A DNA stretch of 64,000 nucleotides from an uncultured Spirochaetaceae bacterium. GTDB lineage: Bacteria > Spirochaetota > Spirochaetia > SZUA-6 > RPPD01. The stretch covers positions 66-64,065 of the forward strand of contig CAZWKE010000015.1 in NCBI GenBank assembly GCA_964634205.1, in the 5' to 3' direction. A program made the translations under genes and the position numbers. Shown one piece after another: positions 49,420 to 58,487 of the stretch; the first letter of the stretch is position 1; the number at the start of each line of letters is the position of its first letter. The notes beneath the pieces are model-generated. The model was not told the origin of the DNA. It worked only from the letters and a program-made list of their open reading frames with translations, and did no database searches.

Positions 49420-49721
49420 CCACCTTTTATCGTGGGAAGGAACCGCCGCCAGGGGCGGTATTTTTTTACATACCCGCAGCTTTCCGGGAGATAGCGGGAG
49501 AATAATGCGTGAAACATGGTAACCTTTTCACAGTTTTTACAGATAATAAATCTTTCATTGTATACGGAACATGTTTTTTGATCGATATTTAAAAAATCGC
49601 ACGGTTTGTCCAGGTTGATGGTGACGGACAGCCCGTGGTGCTCTTTTTCATAACAGCAGATCCCGCAGCGTAAGCATAATTCTTCCCAGGCCTGCCGCTT
49701 TTTTGCAAAGAACCCGCTCAT
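49416..49721 (-). CDS. YkgJ-family (CxxCxxCC) putative Fe-S/zinc cluster protein
   Basis: CLRCGICC motif plus further Cys (CSVYNERFIICKNC). 101 aa. Confidence 0.6.
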   Translation of the reverse strand: MSGFFAKKRQAWEELCLRCGICCYEKEHHGLSVTINLDKPCDFLNIDQKTCSVYNERFIICKNCEKVTMFHALFSRYLPESCGYVKKYRPWRRFLPTIKGG

Positions 49722-50416
49722 GGCGTATCGGCTTCTTTTTTCAGGAGTCTTTTATTGAGTATCAAAAATGTCAGAGGGACCGATATCCCCACAATTATGA
49801 GAAGAATAGCCCAGAACAGGATGAATTTGGAAAATAAAATGACAAAATAGTAGATAAACGCGCAAAACACAATAATGGCCCCCGCGTAAAGGCTGAAGCG
49901 CATTTTGTGTTTTTGTACGGAAAACAGGTACACCGCCAGAAATGACAACCCTATGCTGAGTACCAGGAACACCGGATGAAATCCTATCTCGGGCTGCAGC
50001 ATACTCATCCAGATCCAGAGGCTCAATCCATACAGTGAACCCGCAGGCAGTAATGCCCACCACTGCGCCCTTTGCAGAAGAAAAATGATCAGAAAGGTCG
50101 TGCCGAAGCCGAAGGACAGGAGCGCCGCCGCCAGGGTGCCGATTATTTCGGCAAAGCCGAAAATAAGAATAACAATGCCGAAGCTGAAGGACACGCCGGC
50201 AGGGATAATAAACCAGAACAGCCCGCCGCCCCTGCCCTGAAAAAAGGCAAACACGATCCCGGTGACAAATAAAAGGATCCCAATTACCCTTTCGGTGGCC
50301 TGACCGACCGGGGGGATGATGCTGAAGTTCGTCAGGAGAAAGAATATACCGCTTAAGATCAGGGCCGTGCCCACAAAACCTGTTCGCCAGAAAAAGAAAT
50401 TATCATTCGCTTTCAT
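49718..50416 (-). CDS. Hypothetical polytopic membrane protein
   Basis: Start taken at MKANDNFFFWRTGFVGTALIL. At least 7 TM helices. ATGA overlap with the ykgJ-like gene. Confidence 0.45.
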   Translation of the reverse strand: MKANDNFFFWRTGFVGTALILSGIFFLLTNFSIIPPVGQATERVIGILLFVTGIVFAFFQGRGGGLFWFIIPAGVSFSFGIVILIFGFAEIIGTLAAALLSFGFGTTFLIIFLLQRAQWWALLPAGSLYGLSLWIWMSMLQPEIGFHPVFLVLSIGLSFLAVYLFSVQKHKMRFSLYAGAIIVFCAFIYYFVILFSKFILFWAILLIIVGISVPLTFLILNKRLLKKEADTP

Positions 50417-50498
50417 TCTACATATCACTATACCACTTTGTTTTTTTTTATGATAGGGTAGAGAACAAATATTCCGTTGGGTGGACAAAGGAGCGGTG

Positions 50499-51404
50499 AT
50501 GGATGTGTTTAAAGGGGTGATTGTCGGAGTTGTCGGATTTTTCATCTGTATTTTTCTATTGGCGATTAGTATGGTGTATGTGGTTGATGTCACGATCGGT
50601 GACGCGGATTTTATGGTGCGTAATGCGGCGGCCGTCGATTACAGCCTGCTGCTGGAAGATATTATGCGGGGGGCCCAACCCAACGAACTGCCGGAAAATT
50701 TTTTGAACGGCAAGGCGGGTGAAATAAACCGCTCGGTCCGTGGGTTTGTCGCCAGGATCATCCAATCGGTGTATGGATACCTTGACGGGAAGATCGGGCC
50801 CGAAGAGATCAAGGTCCCGCTCTGGCAGCTGTTCGATGAGCTGCGGCCCTTGCTGGCTGAAGCGGAATATAATTCGCTGCGGAAACAGGGACAAAACGTA
50901 CCTAAAAAGAGCTTTGATAAAAGATTCGACATCATCTGGAGGGAGCTGATGAGTGAAATCCCCGATACGCTGGAGTTCGATGAAAAATCTCTTACGCCGG
51001 AAGACCTGCGCACCCTGTATGGAATTCGCGACGGGTACCGGAATTTTCATTACGCCTATCTGGGTTTTATCCTGTTTTGTGTGGTGTTCTGCGCAATCAT
51101 CTTTTTTGTGGACCGCAATATACCGCTTTCACTTCGGCATGTGGGCATAATGCTGGTGATAACGGGCCTGCTGCAGGTCCTGCTTATCATTTTACTGCAC
51201 AACATGGGAACCTGGACGTTTGTGCTGGACAAAATCCCCAAGTACCTTAAAAGTTATGAGGGGGTTCTGCTGGCCGCGCTGGGAGACTCATTTTTCCTGA
51301 CCACGATACTCTACCTGGTAACAGGCGGTGTGTTTATCGGCGCGTCCGTGTTCTTGCCGCGGATTTTCCCCCCGCCTGAATCAGAAGAAAAGCTCCAGCC
51401 GTAA
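50499..51404 (+). CDS. Hypothetical membrane protein
   Basis: AAGGAG RBS. N-terminal TM, ~170-aa soluble region, then 3 C-terminal TM helices. Confidence 0.45.
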   Translation: MDVFKGVIVGVVGFFICIFLLAISMVYVVDVTIGDADFMVRNAAAVDYSLLLEDIMRGAQPNELPENFLNGKAGEINRSVRGFVARIIQSVYGYLDGKIGPEEIKVPLWQLFDELRPLLAEAEYNSLRKQGQNVPKKSFDKRFDIIWRELMSEIPDTLEFDEKSLTPEDLRTLYGIRDGYRNFHYAYLGFILFCVVFCAIIFFVDRNIPLSLRHVGIMLVITGLLQVLLIILLHNMGTWTFVLDKIPKYLKSYEGVLLAALGDSFFLTTILYLVTGGVFIGASVFLPRIFPPPESEEKLQP

Positions 51405-53969
51405 CGGCAGAACGTGCTTTTTCAGCGTCAGTTCGCACCAGTTATCAGAGTCCTGCCGGGAGCCGGGCGCAGGGGATCTGCCCTGTACGGTGATTTTTTT
51501 CAACGGGGCGCGAAGCGTTTTTGTATAAATCCTCAGACAAACTTCTTTGAATGCGGAGAGTTCCGGTTTCAGCCTGCCCGCAATGCGGGTGATCGAGAGG
51601 GAAAGCTTTCCCCGGCCGGATTGTCCTTCAATTCTCAGGAGTGAGAAGTCGCCGTCAAGATATTTCAGGGTCTGCCCGTCATCGATATACCAGTGCCCCC
51701 GTATCCGCTCTGCCGGGTATACCTGTAATATCGGTGTCTGTTTCAGGGCCTCCTCCGTTACCTCTCCGGGGACGCAGACCGGGATTACGGCCCCGGTACG
51801 GACAAACAGGGGGATTTTGTCCGGCGGGGTCTCCACGATAATACCGGTTCCGCCCTGATACGGAGCGGATCCGGGCCAGGCCAGCCAGTCGCTTCCGGCG
51901 GGCAGGTAGACGCGGCGCCGCGCGGCGCCGGCCGTTAATACCGGGCAGACCATGAGGTCGGGACCGATCATAAACTGACCGGCCGCCGTCTCCTCCTGCA
52001 GACAGGCCGGGTCGTCCGGAAACTCCAGGAACAGCGGGCGCATCAACGGGAGCCCCTCCTCGCAGGCCTGGCGCAGAGAGGTATAAAAATAGGGAAGCAG
52101 GCGGTAGCGCAGTTTCAGGGCCTCCGTGCACAGGCGTTGGATTCTTTCCGGGAAATACCAGAGTTCACGGGGAGGTGTGGCATGCGAGGAGTGGTTGCGG
52201 CAGAAGGGATAAAACGCTCCCAACTGCATCCAGCGCAAAAAAAGCTCCGGGGTGGGTTTACCCCAGAATCCGCCGATATCCGGACCCACCAGCACCTGGC
52301 CCGAAAGTCCCATATTCAGGAGCATGGGCACGGACATGCGCAGGTGTGACCACTTGCTTTTGTTGTCTCCGGTCCAGCTTGAGGCGTAGCGCTGGATGCC
52401 GGCAAAGGCCGAGCGCGTGAACAGGAAATTGCGCAGCCCTCCCCGCAGGCGGGCAAGGCCCCGGGAGGTAGCCCGGGCCATCAGCAGGCCGTAGCAGTTG
52501 TGCACCGTACGGTGGGGCAGGGGGCCCTGCGGTTTTTGGGACGCGTGCATAACATCGCCCGGCATGGTACGGAGCGGGGTAAACAGGGACGGCTCATTCA
52601 TATCGATCCAAAACCCGTCGATGCCGTGTTTCACGTACTCCTGATAAAGGGAACCCCACCATTCCCGTACTTGCTCCGAGGTATAATCCGGAAAGGCCGC
52701 GTCGCCCGGCCAGACCGGCGCGTGAAACACCGAGCCGTCCTGCCTGGTACAGAAGAACCCCCGGCTTACCCCCCGGGCATACACCTCCCACTGCGGGTCC
52801 GCCTTCAGGCCCGGGTCGGACATGATCACAACCTTAAAGCGTTTTTCATGCAGGGCCTTGATCGCGGCCGTCGGATCAGGGAAACGCTCCCGGTTCCAGG
52901 TAAAGGAGCGGTACCCGTTCATGTGCCCGATATCGATATGCAGGGTATCGCAGGGGATCCCGTGTTCCCGGAAGCCCCGGGCAATGGAGAGCAGGCGGGC
53001 GGCGGATTCATTCTCTTCCCAGCGTGAATGATGGTGGCCCAAAACCCAGCGCGGGGGCAGGGGGTACCTGCCGCAGAGCAGGGTAAAGTTGCGTAACACC
53101 TCTTTCAGACCCGGACCGGCTATCACGTAGTAACAGAGCGGGCCCTCTTCGGCCGCGTAAAAAGCGGGCCGCGGGGTCTTTCCCGGGGCCTGATGCTTGG
53201 CCTGATGCGGGCCCTTTCGCGGCGCTTTTCGCAAGCCGCTCCCCGCCGGCAGGATGAACCGGCTGAAGTGGGGGTTGTCGAAAAACAGGGCATGGGAAAA
53301 CCCGTCTCTGCGTATACAGATCTGCAGGGGGCAGGACTGCCACATGGGGTCCGAACGCGGGCCCAAATCCGAATTGTCCGTGTTCCACATGGAAAGGCGT
53401 TGCCCGTTTTTAAAAAGCCCTCCGGTCTTTTCCCCGAATCCGCAATAATATTCTCCCTCCGGCGCCTGCTTTTCACAACCGACCCAGTGACGGCGGAAAA
53501 ACGGGGCCCGCGGCTCACGGTGCAGCAAGCGGCCGCCCAGGCGGAACTCCAGGGTCGCCGTGCCGGTATGAAAAAGGGCCTCCAGCCCCGGTTCGTCCTT
53601 GCCGCCTTTCCGGTTTTGGATAAAAAGGGTATTCTCATCCTGCTTCTGTACCGTCAGTTCATCTGACCCCGTAAGTTCGATGCTCCAGGTCAGGTAATCC
53701 TTCTTGGGAAACGGATCGGTGACCCCGGACGCAGCGGCGGGGCCGTTCACCATGACCCTCCAGATTCCGGGGGTAAGGCAGTGCAGGCTGATGTCCGCGT
53801 TCGCGCATTCAAGCGCAACCGTGGATTTGTCCTTGTCGAACCGAAATCCCTTATAGCCGCGGACCCGTGTGCCCCCGCGGGGTACACGCCGCCGGTTTAA
53901 GAGCGGCTGCAGGACATTAGATACTATTTTTTGCTTGAAAACTTCCGAAAGCCGGGAAAGTAAGTTCAT
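51381..53969 (-). CDS. Glycoside hydrolase family 31 (alpha-glucosidase/alpha-xylosidase)
   Basis: 862 aa. Catalytic-nucleophile motif GFWIDMNEPS. The acid/base region follows. Confidence 0.85.
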   Translation of the reverse strand: MNLLSRLSEVFKQKIVSNVLQPLLNRRRVPRGGTRVRGYKGFRFDKDKSTVALECANADISLHCLTPGIWRVMVNGPAAASGVTDPFPKKDYLTWSIELTGSDELTVQKQDENTLFIQNRKGGKDEPGLEALFHTGTATLEFRLGGRLLHREPRAPFFRRHWVGCEKQAPEGEYYCGFGEKTGGLFKNGQRLSMWNTDNSDLGPRSDPMWQSCPLQICIRRDGFSHALFFDNPHFSRFILPAGSGLRKAPRKGPHQAKHQAPGKTPRPAFYAAEEGPLCYYVIAGPGLKEVLRNFTLLCGRYPLPPRWVLGHHHSRWEENESAARLLSIARGFREHGIPCDTLHIDIGHMNGYRSFTWNRERFPDPTAAIKALHEKRFKVVIMSDPGLKADPQWEVYARGVSRGFFCTRQDGSVFHAPVWPGDAAFPDYTSEQVREWWGSLYQEYVKHGIDGFWIDMNEPSLFTPLRTMPGDVMHASQKPQGPLPHRTVHNCYGLLMARATSRGLARLRGGLRNFLFTRSAFAGIQRYASSWTGDNKSKWSHLRMSVPMLLNMGLSGQVLVGPDIGGFWGKPTPELFLRWMQLGAFYPFCRNHSSHATPPRELWYFPERIQRLCTEALKLRYRLLPYFYTSLRQACEEGLPLMRPLFLEFPDDPACLQEETAAGQFMIGPDLMVCPVLTAGAARRRVYLPAGSDWLAWPGSAPYQGGTGIIVETPPDKIPLFVRTGAVIPVCVPGEVTEEALKQTPILQVYPAERIRGHWYIDDGQTLKYLDGDFSLLRIEGQSGRGKLSLSITRIAGRLKPELSAFKEVCLRIYTKTLRAPLKKITVQGRSPAPGSRQDSDNWCELTLKKHVLPLRLELFF

Positions 53970-56197
53970 GCCTCACCTTTGGCTTTGTGCGCCCCCTCTT
54001 TTACCTGTTTGGATGGGTAGCGCATAAAAATAAACACGCCCAGGATGCCGATGATGCTGACAAAGATGCATGAAATGCGCACACCCAGCGGATTGGCGAT
54101 GTCCTTCCCGAACACCGAGTAAAAAAACGACATCAGCGCGAACGCGATCCCCAGGTTTAACTTCATAAAAAATCCGTGTACCCCGAAGTAGATGCCCTCA
54201 CGGCGTTCTCCCGTGATTTTATAATCATAGTCGCACAGGTCGGAAATAAATACATTGGGGATGATCAGCAGCACGGCCACGGAAAAGCCGAACAGGGCAA
54301 AGATGATCAATGTCCAGATAAGCGGCCCGATATTGACAAAGTTCACCCATTTCCCATTTGTAAAATGGGATACGCCGGTATGCGTGCCGAACCAGATATC
54401 ATGTTCCCCGCTGATCACCACGGCCGACACATAATCGTTTACCAGCCCTTGTGCGGTGGTATAGGTTTGCCATACGGATCCGTTGAAAAACGAGACGCCG
54501 TCCTTGGTCCCGGCATACAATCCCCCGTCGGGAGCGGCGGTAAGGGATGTTATGCGGTCGTTCACCAGGCCGTCCGCCTTTTTAACGGTGGTCCAGGTCC
54601 CGTTTTTGTAGCGGGAAAGGCCCACCTTGGTGCCGCACCAGAGTGAACCGTCCGTACCGGCCGCCAGCGCGGTGATCAGATTGTCCGCCAACCCGTCATT
54701 CACGGTAAAAGACCGCCAGGTCCCGCCGGAAAAGCGGGAGAGTCCCCGCTCGGTGCCGATCCAGACCGTACCCGTTTCATCAACCGTCAGCGCGGTAATT
54801 TGGTCGGCAATCAGGCCGCTTTGTTCATTATAACGCGCCCAGTTGTCCCCGTTATAGGAGGCCAGCCCGGTTTTTGTTCCCACCCAGACGGTCCCGTCCG
54901 GGGCCGCGGCCAGCGCGGTGACGGTACTCTCCGCCAGATCGCGGTCCGTGTTTCCCGCTGACCAGGCGCCGTCTTTATACACCGAAATGCCGGTTTTGGT
55001 GCCGAACCAAACGCCGCCGTCCGGTCCGCGTACCGATGACGTGATACTGTTGTCGGTCAGTCCGGAATCGCTGGTGTAATACCGCCAGTTTGTTCCGTCG
55101 AATGACGATACGCCGCGTGCCGTGCCGAACCAGGCCGTCCCATTATCAACGGTGACCGCGGTCACGTAATTGCAGGTGATACCGTCCGGGTTGCTGCCCA
55201 GGCCGGTGAAGGAAATCAGCACGGAGAAAAAGGCGAACAGGGCCATGCCGCTCATCATCACCTTCTTTTTCCCGATTTTACGGGACAAAAACAGGGCCAG
55301 GGGAAAGAACAGGGCCGCGCCCACAAAGATGATGATGGAGGCCAGGCCGATGGTTTCCTCGTTCATTACCATCATGGTTTCCCCGATATGGTTTACCGAA
55401 CCGCGGATTGTATTGAACATGAACCAGAAACACATGTTCGTCAGCAGAAAGATAATAAACGGTTTGTTTTTCAGGGTCAGTTTCAGCGATTCAAAAAAGG
55501 GTATGGCACAGGGCTTGGCGTTGGAATATTTCTTTTCGTTTACCGCGAATACGGCCATATAAACAAGTACGGCCCCCACGGCGCACAAAATGACGGCCAT
55601 CATCTGAAAGGCGCTGACGGGGTTGGAGGTTTTCAAAAATGTATCGTAGAGCATGGGGCCGCCGATCATAACCAGGCCCGCGCCGATAAGCGCAAAATAC
55701 CCCTGGGCGGTGGTAATGTTCAACCGCTCCTTCTCTGAATGCCCCAGCTCCGGAATCAGCGCAATATAGGGCGCCACGTACATCGTATAGAACAGGAAAT
55801 ACAGGCCGAATACCAGGGCCATGTAAATGACATTCAGGTAGGTGGTAAACTGAAACGGGGGAAAGAAGATCAGGGCGGTACAGGCCGCCAAAGGAAGCCC
55901 GCTGATCACCAGAAAAAACCTGCGCCGCCCCAGGGGAGAGCGGGACCGGTCCGACCAGGCGGCCACCGGAGGATCGGTGACGGCATCCACAATCCTGCCG
56001 AACACCATCAGAAGCCCCAGGACGGGGATGACCCCCCAGATCAGCTCCGGTACGAATTGGATCATTCCTTCTTCGATATTTTCGGCGGTAGGCAGAAAGA
56101 ACTTGGCGGAATAGAACAACAGCATGGTGTCGAACAGGGCATGCCCCGCCGTAGAAAGGTTATAAAGAAAAAGACGCGGTCCTTTAAAACGCTCCAT
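53966..56197 (-). CDS. MFS glycoside-pentoside-hexuronide (GPH/MelB-like) cation symporter with a ~300-aa two-component-regulator-propeller (Reg_prop) beta-propeller inserted between TM9 and TM10
   Basis: ATG at 56197 with a GGGAGG RBS. TM1-9 are GPH-like. Six and a half ~41-aa repeats of the form W[FVIC]GT..G[LIV]S.[FY]..G.W follow. Then 3 more TM helices. ATGA overlap with the GH31 gene. Confidence 0.75.
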   Translation of the reverse strand: MERFKGPRLFLYNLSTAGHALFDTMLLFYSAKFFLPTAENIEEGMIQFVPELIWGVIPVLGLLMVFGRIVDAVTDPPVAAWSDRSRSPLGRRRFFLVISGLPLAACTALIFFPPFQFTTYLNVIYMALVFGLYFLFYTMYVAPYIALIPELGHSEKERLNITTAQGYFALIGAGLVMIGGPMLYDTFLKTSNPVSAFQMMAVILCAVGAVLVYMAVFAVNEKKYSNAKPCAIPFFESLKLTLKNKPFIIFLLTNMCFWFMFNTIRGSVNHIGETMMVMNEETIGLASIIIFVGAALFFPLALFLSRKIGKKKVMMSGMALFAFFSVLISFTGLGSNPDGITCNYVTAVTVDNGTAWFGTARGVSSFDGTNWRYYTSDSGLTDNSITSSVRGPDGGVWFGTKTGISVYKDGAWSAGNTDRDLAESTVTALAAAPDGTVWVGTKTGLASYNGDNWARYNEQSGLIADQITALTVDETGTVWIGTERGLSRFSGGTWRSFTVNDGLADNLITALAAGTDGSLWCGTKVGLSRYKNGTWTTVKKADGLVNDRITSLTAAPDGGLYAGTKDGVSFFNGSVWQTYTTAQGLVNDYVSAVVISGEHDIWFGTHTGVSHFTNGKWVNFVNIGPLIWTLIIFALFGFSVAVLLIIPNVFISDLCDYDYKITGERREGIYFGVHGFFMKLNLGIAFALMSFFYSVFGKDIANPLGVRISCIFVSIIGILGVFIFMRYPSKQVKEGAHKAKGEA

Positions 56198-56303
56198 GGT
56201 ATGACCTCCCAACACAGCATAGAGGGAATCACTGAAAGAATCAAGCCAATTTTGGGGTTGCCCAGAAACGTTTTACATTATAGAATGTACCGTATAACAT
56301 AAA

Positions 56304-56375
56304 GCCAGAATAGCTCAGGGGTAGAGCAACGCTCTCGTAAAGCGTGGGTCGTGGGTTCAATTCCCACTTCTGGCT
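56304..56375 (+). tRNA. tRNA-Thr (anticodon CGU)
   Basis: Cloverleaf: acceptor GCCAGAA/TTCTGGC. Anticodon loop CTCGTAA. T-arm GTGGGTTCAATTCCCAC. No encoded CCA. Confidence 0.85.
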
Positions 56376-56408
56376 TTCCCCCAAAACATCATAACGGAGA
56401 CTTGAAAC

Positions 56409-56810
56409 ATGCAAAGGATTATGTGGCTTAAATACAAAGGCAAGAAAGTCTTATTTGCCGATTATTCCGGTGCTCCCGTCCGGGAAATCCTGGAATTATT
56501 TGATAAATTCAATAAATTCGTGGCGGGCTTGAACGAAAAAATATTGGTGCTGACGGATTTCAACAACATTAAGATCGATAAAATCATCATCCAGCGGTTA
56601 AAGGACGCTGATTCCAAAATGTCGGCCAAAAAATTCAAGAAGGCCGCGGTTCTGGGAATAGAGGGCGTAAAAAAGACCCTCCTGAACTTCTATAATGCCG
56701 CCACCGGAAGCAAGGTAAAGGCCTGCACCAATAAACAGGAAGCATTGGACTGGCTGGTTAAATCCGTAGGCAAGTCAGACCTGGCGGATGAAAGCTTTCT
56801 TGAGCAATAG
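56409..56810 (+). CDS. Hypothetical protein, possibly STAS/SpoIIAA-like fold
   Basis: 133 aa. Alternating beta/alpha pattern KVLFADYSGAP...ILVLTDFNNIK...AAVLGIEGVKK. No catalytic motifs. Confidence 0.35.
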   Translation: MQRIMWLKYKGKKVLFADYSGAPVREILELFDKFNKFVAGLNEKILVLTDFNNIKIDKIIIQRLKDADSKMSAKKFKKAAVLGIEGVKKTLLNFYNAATGSKVKACTNKQEALDWLVKSVGKSDLADESFLEQ

Positions 56811-56832: not shown

Positions 56833-57477
56833 TTATTCTTTGGATTTTCTGCGGCTTTTGACAAAGCGGTCGAAATCATTGATGTTTCTGATGACGATGC
56901 GGTCGTTGTACAACTCCACGCGGTGCTGCTGTGAGAAGTGGTTGATTACGTTTCTGCATTCCGCGGGCTGGATTCCCGCCCAGTGGGCGATGTCGTCCAC
57001 CGTGGCTTTGAACTCTATGGTATCGTTCTCTCTGTCGGCCGGCAGTTCTTTTTCGGCGAGCATCAGAAAAACATCCGCCACCTTGGCCTGGGTATCATCA
57101 AGAGTAAGAATCATAAAGCGGCGTTTCTGGTCATAAATGCGTTTGATGAACAGTTTCATCAGTTTCAGGGCGATCTGCGGGTTACCGCGCATCAGGATCT
57201 CAAAGTTGGCGCGGTTGAACTCCAGGGCCTGTACCCGGTCCATGGCAATGGCCGTGGCCGAGCGGGGGGCCTCCTCCAGAATGGCCATCTCTCCGAAGAT
57301 TTCACCGGGATTGAGAATATCCAGGGTCTTTTCGATATTTCCGATAATCTTGACGATCTTTACCCTGCCGGATTGGATCAGGTAGAAGTTATCACCCGGT
57401 TCGTACTCGCAGAAGATGATGCTGCCCTTGGGAAAGCCCTTGCTGAAACGCTGGAACATCTGGTCAAAAGAACTCAT
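56833..57477 (-). CDS. Crp/Fnr-family transcriptional regulator
   Basis: cNMP-binding GEIFGEMAILEEAPRSATAIA. C-terminal HTH. Confidence 0.8.
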   Translation of the reverse strand: MSSFDQMFQRFSKGFPKGSIIFCEYEPGDNFYLIQSGRVKIVKIIGNIEKTLDILNPGEIFGEMAILEEAPRSATAIAMDRVQALEFNRANFEILMRGNPQIALKLMKLFIKRIYDQKRRFMILTLDDTQAKVADVFLMLAEKELPADRENDTIEFKATVDDIAHWAGIQPAECRNVINHFSQQHRVELYNDRIVIRNINDFDRFVKSRRKSKE

Positions 57478-58487
57478 ACCTTCTCTCCTTCCAGTTTCCG
57501 CAGCGCCTTGCGTGCTTTCTGATACAGACTCTCGGTCTCGGGCGTAAGGGCCAGCACCTTTTTGAAGATGCTGATCGCCTTGTCACCATTGTTCATCGCG
57601 TTATGTGAGCTGGCGATAAAATAGAGGGCGTCCTTTACATCCGGGTGTTTGGGGTACTTCTGGATCCAGGTGGTAAAAAGCCGTATGCAGTTGTCGTATT
57701 TTTTTACATAGAACAGGCAGCGCCCCATCTCGTACTGTGATTTGGAAATGTACTCCTCATCATTCGATGAGTTGACGATCGCCTTGAATTCGTTATAGGC
57801 GTCATCGTATTTCTCCTGGCTGATCAGGCTGACCGCCTTATAGTAGGTTTGGGCCACGTCGGAGAGCTGCTTTGTTTCCTGCGGTTTTCCCGCGGGCGCC
57901 GGCTGTGCGGCCTGGGGTGCCGCATCCGGACCTTTTCCCTGGCCGTACCGGTTTAAATAGCTTTCGGCCGTTTCAATATTTTTGATGGCGTCCGAGGCCC
58001 GTGAACCCGATGGGTAATACACCAGGTAGCGTTTAAAGGCGTAGATGGCCTGGTCGTAGGCCTTGTTGGAAAGATAATACTCCCCGATACTGAACAGCCC
58101 CTTTTCGGGATTGATGTGTTCTTCGGCATGGATAAGGTTCTGTACCTGTTTTTGAATGCGGCGCAGCTGGTTGGAAAATACCTTCAGCATCTTTAAGACC
58201 ACGCGGCCGTGTTTGCCGACAAGCTGTTCGAACTCCGGCACGGAAAAGGCAACCACGGTGGAATCGGCCAGCACCACCGCCGTCTCCTCGCGTCTGAACC
58301 TGCCCAGGGCGGATTTTACGCCGAAAAACTCACCGGTCTTTACCAGGTCGTGGATCTCCTGTCCGGTTTCAATATCCTCGTAATTCAGGCTGACCTTGCC
58401 GGCATTGAGAATGAATACCTTGTCACCGATATCTCCCTGAAAATAGATAATGGAATTGGCTTTATAGAACACGGACTTTGGCGACAC
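57474..58487 (-). CDS. Cyclic-nucleotide-binding domain protein with C-terminal TPR repeats
   Basis: N-terminal cNMP-binding FFGVKSALGRFRREETAVVLADSTV. Then 3-4 TPR-like repeats (AYDQAIYAFKRYLVYYP...). ATGA overlap with crp. Confidence 0.65.
   Translation of the reverse strand: MSPKSVFYKANSIIYFQGDIGDKVFILNAGKVSLNYEDIETGQEIHDLVKTGEFFGVKSALGRFRREETAVVLADSTVVAFSVPEFEQLVGKHGRVVLKMLKVFSNQLRRIQKQVQNLIHAEEHINPEKGLFSIGEYYLSNKAYDQAIYAFKRYLVYYPSGSRASDAIKNIETAESYLNRYGQGKGPDAAPQAAQPAPAGKPQETKQLSDVAQTYYKAVSLISQEKYDDAYNEFKAIVNSSNDEEYISKSQYEMGRCLFYVKKYDNCIRLFTTWIQKYPKHPDVKDALYFIASSHNAMNNGDKAISIFKKVLALTPETESLYQKARKALRKLEGEKV

Follow-up and report, generated by a model that had tools for sequence, protein, structure and literature searches.

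The subject of this analysis is a sugar-symporter-like gene in a 64,000-nucleotide stretch of DNA from an uncultured Spirochaetaceae bacterium (positions 66-64,065 of the forward strand of contig CAZWKE010000015.1, assembly GCA_964634205.1; the whole stretch is referred to as the window). We found that the encoded protein combines the membrane core of a GPH-type transporter belonging to the major facilitator superfamily (MFS) with a complete seven-bladed beta-propeller of the Reg_prop type, which is inserted between transmembrane (TM) helices 9 and 10 and lies on the periplasmic side. This architecture is real and not an artefact, and it is rare, conserved and apparently undescribed. The parts of the gene, with the evidence for each in brackets (AF2 denotes an AlphaFold2 model), are as follows.

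53966..56197, minus strand: coding sequence of the symporter-propeller protein, 743 amino acids plus stop (translation of the open reading frame (ORF); Pfam MFS_2 and Reg_prop; identical to database protein P0001).
56205..56209, minus strand: Shine-Dalgarno-like GGAGG, 7 nt 5' of the ATG at 56197 (read from the sequence).
55211..56197, minus strand: MFS N-domain and TM7-TM9, residues 1-329, nine TM helices (AF2 helices H7-34 to H310-329; MFS_2; Foldseek).
55970..55999, minus strand: TM2 motif GRIVDAVTDP, residues 67-76, with Asp71 and Asp75, a cation-site motif of the GPH/MFSD2A type (profile alignment).
55166..55210, minus strand: N-side linker, residues 330-344, FTGLGSNPDGITCNY (mean conservation 0.87; pLDDT about 66).
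54338..55165, minus strand: seven-bladed Reg_prop beta-propeller, residues 345-620 (28 strands, 7x4; Reg_prop; PDB matches).
55046-55165, 54923-55045, 54800-54922 and 54677-54799, minus strand: propeller blades 1-4.
54554-54676, 54431-54553 and 54338-54430, minus strand: propeller blades 5-7.
53969..54337, minus strand: residues 621-743, made up of a 3-residue C-side linker, TM10-TM12 and a short tail in the cytoplasm (AF2; conserved block).

The frame runs uninterrupted from the ATG with zero internal stops, and an alternative GTG start is found at 56215. Since the translation is 100% identical to P0001, an NCBI protein from a metagenome-assembled genome (MAG) that is labelled just 'MFS transporter [Spirochaetia bacterium]', the gene carries no frameshift specific to the window.

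An earlier reading of the stretch, made from the sequence alone (the sequence-only reading), had proposed a GPH-family symporter, and the membrane core indeed behaves as one. Pfam MFS_2 matched with 159.7 bits (1.1e-46; gathering cutoff 27) in two stretches that flank the insert, the first of which, residues 59-336, corresponds to positions 34-310 of the 427-position profile. Hydropathy, with nine hydrophobic segments up to residue 336 and the remainder beyond residue 617, and an AF2 model built on a 65-sequence alignment (mean pLDDT 87, pTM 0.77) both gave 12 TM helices, nine ahead of the insert and three behind it. In the model TM9 is H310-329 and the last helices are H624-662 (TM10), H667-696 and H704-724. 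When the model was compared with the PDB by Foldseek, the core superposed across the insert, with both halves, on MelB (7L16, TMt 0.78) and MFSD2A (7OIX, TMt 0.82), and a sequence profile of insertion-free relatives found the same two proteins in the PDB (MFSD2A best with 1.7e-17, MelB 1.5e-9). The TM2 motif GRIVDAVTDP was aligned to GRAWDAITDP of MFSD2A and reads 'GrivDavadP' in the insertion-free profile; the window protein has the acidic pair 'GRxxDAxxDP' of the GPH/MFSD2A type, which forms the cation site in MelB (D55/D59) and in MFSD2A. Behind the insert the core has a conserved block, 'NVFISDLCDYD...GERRE...K679'. The window protein (130.4 bits) fell below the cutoff of the NCBIfam model TIGR00792 'gph' (231.35), and so did the insertion-free relative P0010 (141.3 bits). 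The low score is therefore not due to the insert but is shared by the subfamily as a whole, which forms a divergent branch of GPH-like proteins.

The distribution of lysine and arginine residues was used to orient the protein. With the insert excluded, these residues numbered 17 among 73 cytoplasmic-loop residues versus 2 among 49 periplasmic-loop residues, and this positive-inside bias places the propeller in the periplasm, as had been expected from MFS topology, and not in the cytoplasm. The cytoplasmic C-terminal tail is 19 residues long and includes no output domain.

The insert itself comprises about 290 amino acids (residues ~333-623) and stands, in the alignment, in place of a loop of about five residues ('TGL|LPVNP') in insertion-free relatives that are ~58% identical in the membrane part. 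The position that the sequence-only reading had assigned to it, the TM9-TM10 loop, is borne out by both the alignment and the AF2 model, while the proposed length of ~300 amino acids is corrected to ~290. The six and a half repeats described there turned out to be seven complete blades, with seven 'W.GT' repeats in the sequence and 28 strands at residues 345-620 in the model, that is, seven four-stranded blades. The proposed Reg_prop identity, for its part, held in a profile search, which placed a Reg_prop match (2.8e-22; 76.3 bits versus a cutoff of 20.4) between the two MFS_2 stretches, and in sequence comparison with the PDB, where the best matches were sensor domains from hybrid two-component systems (HTCS), namely 4A2L (1e-30), 3V9F and 3OTT. 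In Foldseek the propeller superposed on BT3049 (3V9F) with a root-mean-square deviation of 2.6 A over 304 columns, and likewise on BT4663 and BT4673; no solved chain in this PDB search combined MFS and propeller folds. Pfam and NCBIfam gave no match to Y_Y_Y, HATPase, HisKA or Response_reg in the window protein, and there is a single propeller. The protein is not an HTCS.

Conservation within the insert is uneven. Its most conserved part is the N-side linker, in which 8 of 15 positions are invariant among nine sequences of the closest family (clade A, described below); at the other end, just three residues lie between the last propeller strand and TM10 in the AF2 model. In the same nine sequences the B strands and BC turns of the entry face reached a conservation of 0.84, and the loops of the exit face 0.63-0.65. 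Nearly all invariant residues of the insert belong to the generic Reg_prop scaffold (W.GT..G, GL). A codon analysis of four orthologues gave pN of 0.32-0.37 in the insert with a saturated pS (0.69-0.81) and zero stops, from which we conclude that the insert is under purifying selection; every homologue likewise has an open frame across it. Its rate of evolution is nevertheless roughly three times that of the core (amino acid identity 47% versus 79%).

The symporter gene is followed on the same strand by a second gene, with which it overlaps.

53966..53969, minus strand: ATGA stop/start overlap of the symporter and glycoside hydrolase genes, ...GGTGAGGCATGAACTTA... (read from the sequence).
51381..53969, minus strand: gene for an alpha-glucosidase of glycoside hydrolase family 31 (GH31), 862 amino acids, no signal peptide evident (Pfam Glyco_hydro_31_2nd 3.6e-120).

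The overlap and the operon pairing had both been noted in the sequence-only reading, and the pairing is conserved in every locus of both clades described below. The GH31 partner is a three-domain protein, with N- and C-terminal domains matched by Pfam besides the catalytic one, and its nearest solved relatives are alpha-glucosidases (BT_3299-type 5DJW, endoplasmic reticulum glucosidase II and MalA). An assignment as a YicI-like alpha-xylosidase is less likely, because the NCBIfam match to MalA (5e-118) is far better than that to alpha-xylosidase (2e-79) and YicI itself is much more distant. In each of the seven partners that were checked, the nucleophile motif WIDMNEP and the acid/base motif WTGD were intact. 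The next gene downstream is GH31 at all clade A loci that were compared (L001-L007, L015 and L017). The same holds for the loci of the second clade (clade B), although their other neighbours are unrelated, with PadR, GH3, a periplasmic-binding-protein/HD protein and CsgG in place of an amidohydrolase and two cyclic-nucleotide-binding proteins; the gene after the clade B protein P0206 opens with the same GH31 N-terminal motif. Between the clades the partners are 39-46% identical, share an N-terminal 'QPLLNRR' and have no evident signal peptide. In the insertion-free sister group (P0010, P0015) the symporter gene is likewise followed at once by this GH31, the two overlapping by 4 bp, and it is not adjacent in the more distant insertion-free relatives P0011 and P0054. 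Since the insertion-free sisters are paired with GH31 as well, the propeller was added to a pre-existing uptake-hydrolysis cassette. Two further observations concern the GH31 gene and its DNA. Residues ~243-262 (window ~53190-53250, minus strand) form a basic low-complexity insertion of about 20 residues, GSGLRKAPRKGPHQAKHQAP, which is also present in the closest relative (L015) and which the remaining partners of both clades lack, and the GC content at 52-54 kb (0.608) is the maximum of the window.

We then considered how widely the architecture is distributed. Eight more clusters at 90% identity (P0002-P0009; 737-753 amino acids, 55-74% identity) share it with the window protein, and the nearest other relatives, from P0010 onward, are the ~58%-identical insertion-free proteins mentioned above, which are ordinary symporters of ~452 amino acids. 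Altogether about 16 clusters with the insert were found in JGI, ENA, NCBI and Logan assemblies from independent Spirochaetales MAGs, all with the same insertion site; a search for such homologues and for co-occurring GH31 had been suggested in the sequence-only reading. In the databases they are labelled simply 'MFS transporter' or 'GPH family symporter'. Besides the query cluster, a profile search of 1.84 billion representatives returned one divergent member (P0206; 35% identity, same junctions), in a result so crowded by multi-propeller proteins that distant MFS-propeller proteins below ~437 bits could be missed. A search seeded with P0206 led to clade B, which consists of Spirochaetales proteins of 740-750 amino acids (P0269-P0274), besides P0206.

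L012 (8001-10232), L014 (8001-10238) and L011 (163-2067): loci of the clade B proteins P0269-P0274 and P0206.

The AF2 model of a clade B member again showed 12 TM helices and seven blades (pLDDT 87.6, pTM 0.87). In a scan of 185,579 species-representative genomes, with patterns that were derived from clade A and leave clade B out of the count, the junction and propeller were present at full coverage in only three, all of them uncultured Spirochaetaceae/Spirochaetales MAGs.

A neighbour-joining tree of the core columns without the propeller placed clades A and B together with 86% bootstrap support, nested within insertion-free symporters, and clade B was on a very long branch. This grouping favours, but does not prove, a single insertion of the propeller into the TM9-TM10 loop in an ancestor within Spirochaetales, and it disfavours independent insertions in the two clades. 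The clade A propeller resembles some free multi-propeller 'sensor' proteins (identity of up to 42%) more closely than it does the clade B propeller, a likeness that may reflect consensus-like repeats only.

The two clades differ strongly in the state of the transport machinery. Of the 80 positions at which 13 insertion-free relatives show no variation, 91% were kept in clade A and 41% in clade B. The residues kept in clade A include D23, R68, D71, E150, K679 and D699, and those lost in clade B include both TM2 aspartates, D23, R68, E150, K679, K698 and D699; of the six clade A sequences, five have D71, which is invariant in the insertion-free relatives. Identity was likewise distributed in opposite ways, with the core above the propeller in clade A (74% versus 50%) and below it in clade B (45% versus 58%). 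The most divergent clade A member, P0009 (L006, 4808-7057), has independently acquired I, I and H in place of D23, R68 and D71, with most other motifs kept. Because the transport residues are kept in the window protein, it looks like a competent symporter. Clade B, judged by the same residues, looks as if its coupling has changed or transport has been given up while the propeller and GH31 were kept, and may represent a transporter turning into a receptor or a uniporter.

Taking these data together, we tentatively favour the view that the window protein works as a symporter and that its propeller captures a periplasmic alpha-glucoside oligosaccharide, or presents it, and thereby feeds GH31. In this scheme, the protein would be a cation-coupled glycoside symporter of a divergent GPH/MFS_2 subfamily that brings in an alpha-glucoside (a disaccharide or an oligosaccharide, probably), and the co-translated cytoplasmic GH31 alpha-glucosidase would then hydrolyse it. 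The propeller, held on the periplasmic face of the C-domain by the conserved 15-residue linker from TM9 and the three residues into TM10, would act as a built-in glycan-binding module that binds periplasmic oligosaccharide and either raises its level at the outward-facing vestibule or hands it over to the vestibule. The result would be a function like that of a binding protein within one polypeptide. The identity of the sugar, ligand binding by the propeller and the hand-off to the transporter are thus putative elements of this scheme. We favour it because of the intact transport motifs, the conserved GH31 operon and the glycan binding of known Reg_prop propellers; because the N-side linker and the BC turns of the entry face are the best-conserved parts of the insert; and because the entry face should point at the transporter. 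This orientation we infer from topology, since the chain enters and leaves an A-B-C-D blade at the entry face and the link to TM10 has only three residues, which should turn the entry face towards the membrane. By analogy with glycan-binding Reg_prop propellers, oligosaccharide capture is plausible: BT4663 binds a disaccharide on the entry faces of its propellers, and PorZ has been discussed likewise (PMC5121618), while BguR-type regulators have a similar tandem-propeller sensor architecture.

Several points weigh against this interpretation. No specific ligand pocket could be identified in the insert, no specific BC-turn residues are common to clades A and B, and only the generic scaffold is invariant on a propeller whose surface diverges fast compared with the core. 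The HTCS proteins that sense glycans are dimers with two propellers and a Y_Y_Y domain, whereas the window protein has one propeller and no Y_Y_Y. The insertion-free sisters evidently work with the same GH31, and the propeller is therefore unneeded for transport as such. The closest solved relative of the core is a lipid symporter, MFSD2A. Finally, PepT1/2 can still transport when the domain between their TM9 and TM10 is taken out, and what this domain binds is a protein and not the substrate (PMC4597091).

This last comparison leads to an explanation that we consider unlikely but worth weighing, namely that the propeller is a platform on which a protein or a component of the envelope docks, for example a glycanase of the periplasm or outer membrane, a porin or peptidoglycan. 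Docking would cluster oligosaccharide production or entry beside the transporter, in the way proposed for the PepT1/2 domain and trypsin. Beta-propellers are common protein-interaction scaffolds, and a fast-evolving surface on which only scaffold residues are invariant would agree with such a role, as would the TM9-TM10 insertion site, which is the same as in PepT1/2, where the trypsin-binding domain is dispensable for transport (PMC4597091). However, when the neighbourhoods of both clades were searched for a conserved partner gene, none was found beside the cassette apart from GH31, which appears cytoplasmic, and the cited ligands of Reg_prop propellers are glycans.

A further possibility is a sensor or gate resembling a transceptor, in which a ligand on the propeller would open, close or otherwise regulate the MFS part allosterically through the rigid TM10 link, or the protein would signal substrate availability, in place of transport or in addition to it. 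The link of three residues into the cavity-lining TM10 would be expected to couple the movements of the propeller and the C-domain. The clade B core, moreover, lost 59% of the subfamily-invariant residues while its propeller remained better conserved than the core (0.58 versus 0.45), P0009 in clade A also lost D23, R68 and D71, and these losses fit a functional shift from transport towards the propeller. Yet clade B keeps directly downstream a GH31 that is catalytically intact by its motifs and needs imported substrate, and a protein that has lost the Asp pair could be a uniporter instead of having lost transport, as the behaviour of MelB mutants suggests. The window protein itself keeps its transport residues and lacks an output domain in the cytoplasm, and the neighbourhoods of the two clades have no regulator gene in common. 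Because of the 19-residue tail, the 91% of invariant residues that are kept and the lack of a shared regulator, the transceptor explanation is weak for the window protein, weaker than oligosaccharide capture, and we judge it quite improbable.

A purely structural role of the propeller, in oligomerisation, stability or periplasmic localisation and with no binding of substrate, would agree with the dimerisation of HTCS propeller domains and with the restriction of invariance to scaffold residues, but it is very unlikely for a 290-residue domain that has been under purifying selection over a deep divergence, always occurs with GH31 and in clade B surpasses the rest of the protein in conservation. 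An artefact, be it a frameshift, a chimeric assembly or a mis-called gene fusion, retains practically no probability: the frameshift or sequencing error separating two genes that the sequence-only reading had allowed for is excluded, as is a chimera, by the continuous frame, the identical protein in an independent NCBI record and the recurrence of the same junction in about 16 clusters from multiple assemblies and in three GTDB species genomes, and the TM10-12 part is required to complete the 12-TM MFS fold.

With oligosaccharide capture as the favoured explanation, the protein can be compared with known systems. It shares with GPH (TC 2.A.2/MFS_2) symporters such as MelB the 12-TM fold, the TM2 motif 'GRxxDAxxDP' and the charged TM10-11 block; it differs from them in the 290-residue TM9-TM10 propeller and in belonging to a subfamily below the TIGR00792 cutoff, and the sugar-site residue Asp124 of MelB appears not to be conserved. 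The pairing of a GPH transporter gene with a GH31 gene also occurs in Escherichia coli yicJ-yicI, although the GH31 of the window is nearer to alpha-glucosidases than to the alpha-xylosidase YicI. MFSD2A, a Na+-dependent lysophosphatidylcholine symporter, is the closest solved relative of the core and shares the Asp pair of TM2, but it is eukaryotic, transports a lipid and has no large extracytoplasmic domain, whereas the gene context in the window points to glycosides. The Bacteroides HTCS sensors BT4663, BT3049 and BT4673, PorZ and BguR have the same seven-bladed Reg_prop fold in an extracytoplasmic position; proteins of these types differ in having two tandem propellers with Y_Y_Y, one TM helix and kinase/regulator or DNA-binding outputs.

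Domains attached to transporters are known from other families as well. Secondary transporters of the TRAP and TTT types are served by an extracytoplasmic binding module, which is a separate protein of the substrate-binding-protein fold working with non-MFS membrane parts; the analogy with the window protein is a functional one, and binding by its propeller is putative. PepT1 and PepT2 (SLC15) likewise have a folded extracytoplasmic domain between TM9 and TM10, but it consists of two Ig-like domains in a eukaryotic POT-family carrier and binds trypsin, and the likeness is positional only (PMC4597091). Bacterial MFS fusions with LacS-IIA, CBS, CNBD, PAS or UspA domains are cytoplasmic, usually C-terminal and regulatory, and neither a propeller nor a loop insertion is mentioned in a review of them (PMC10710835). 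The window protein resembles these 'plug-on' fusions in that a domain was added to an MFS/GPH transporter, but its domain is periplasmic and sits inside the fold. The full-text literature searched, on MFS proteins or other transporters with a propeller or Reg_prop domain and on bacterial transceptors, yielded no description of this architecture, in line with the remark in the sequence-only reading that no such description had been seen.

The flanks of the cassette were also compared among the loci. Directly upstream of the symporter gene lie tRNA-Thr(CGT) at 56303-56376 (plus strand) and a 133-amino-acid ORF at 56409-56810 (plus strand) with a weak, below-cutoff SpoIIAA-like match. The same spot is occupied in orthologous loci by a radical-SAM gene (L001, L006, L015) or by two phage-type integrases (L003-L005, L017), and since the upstream genes differ among loci, this flank of the cassette is variable and possibly integration-prone. 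Further upstream, 56833-58487 (minus strand) encodes two cyclic-nucleotide-binding proteins, one Crp-like with a helix-turn-helix and one fused to TPR, followed by an amidohydrolase gene. Synteny of this group with the cassette extends, besides the window, to the clade A members L001 and L006 and not to the P0008 loci or clade B, and nothing in the neighbourhood comparison linked the cyclic-nucleotide-binding proteins to the transporter. On the other side, two hydrophobic ORFs without a Pfam match adjoin GH31, at 50481-51404 (plus strand) and 49718-50593 (minus strand). The one of ~300 amino acids on the strand opposite to GH31 is conserved downstream of it in all clade A loci (298-331 amino acids) and is absent from clade B.

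A parallel case was found in a different transporter superfamily. More than 80 clusters at 90% identity (P0383-P0471; 727-801 amino acids) of Dpp/Opp-type ABC permeases, for example from Anaerolineae, carry Reg_prop repeats on the N-terminal side of BPD_transp_1, in what appears to be extracytoplasmic loop 1; in P0383 the repeats are closely followed by the loop-1 motif and the TM helix after it. In shorter relatives (P0486-P0497) an SH3_3 domain takes the place of Reg_prop. These permeases follow the same propeller-in-outer-loop design as the window protein, in other phyla and with an independent origin, and we met no description of them in the literature, in which no search was aimed at them. 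From the MFS and ABC cases together it follows that the placement of Reg_prop in an outer loop arose at least twice, in unrelated superfamilies, which strengthens the case for substrate handling at the outer face of the transporter and suggests that the principle is general.

An MFS transporter is generally viewed as a machine of 12 helices that is complete in itself and is reached by its substrate through diffusion, and it is mainly in animal carriers, PepT1/2 among them, that folded extracytoplasmic domains inside the MFS fold are known. Against this background, a bolder interpretation, which we regard as possible but doubtful, is that the window protein is an MFS transporter with its own extracytoplasmic glycan receptor, delivering the glycan or gating transport through the rigid TM10 link; that clade B is drifting from cation coupling towards a propeller-centred receptor or uniporter; and that, together with the ABC permeases, these proteins form a general, overlooked 'receptor-in-loop' class of importers. 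The family offers a natural insertion-free sister that can be used as a control, and in clade B an example of motif decay with the propeller kept. It therefore provides a tractable system for built-in receptors of secondary transporters, for the coupling of TM10 to the rocker-switch cycle and for the change from transporter to receptor.

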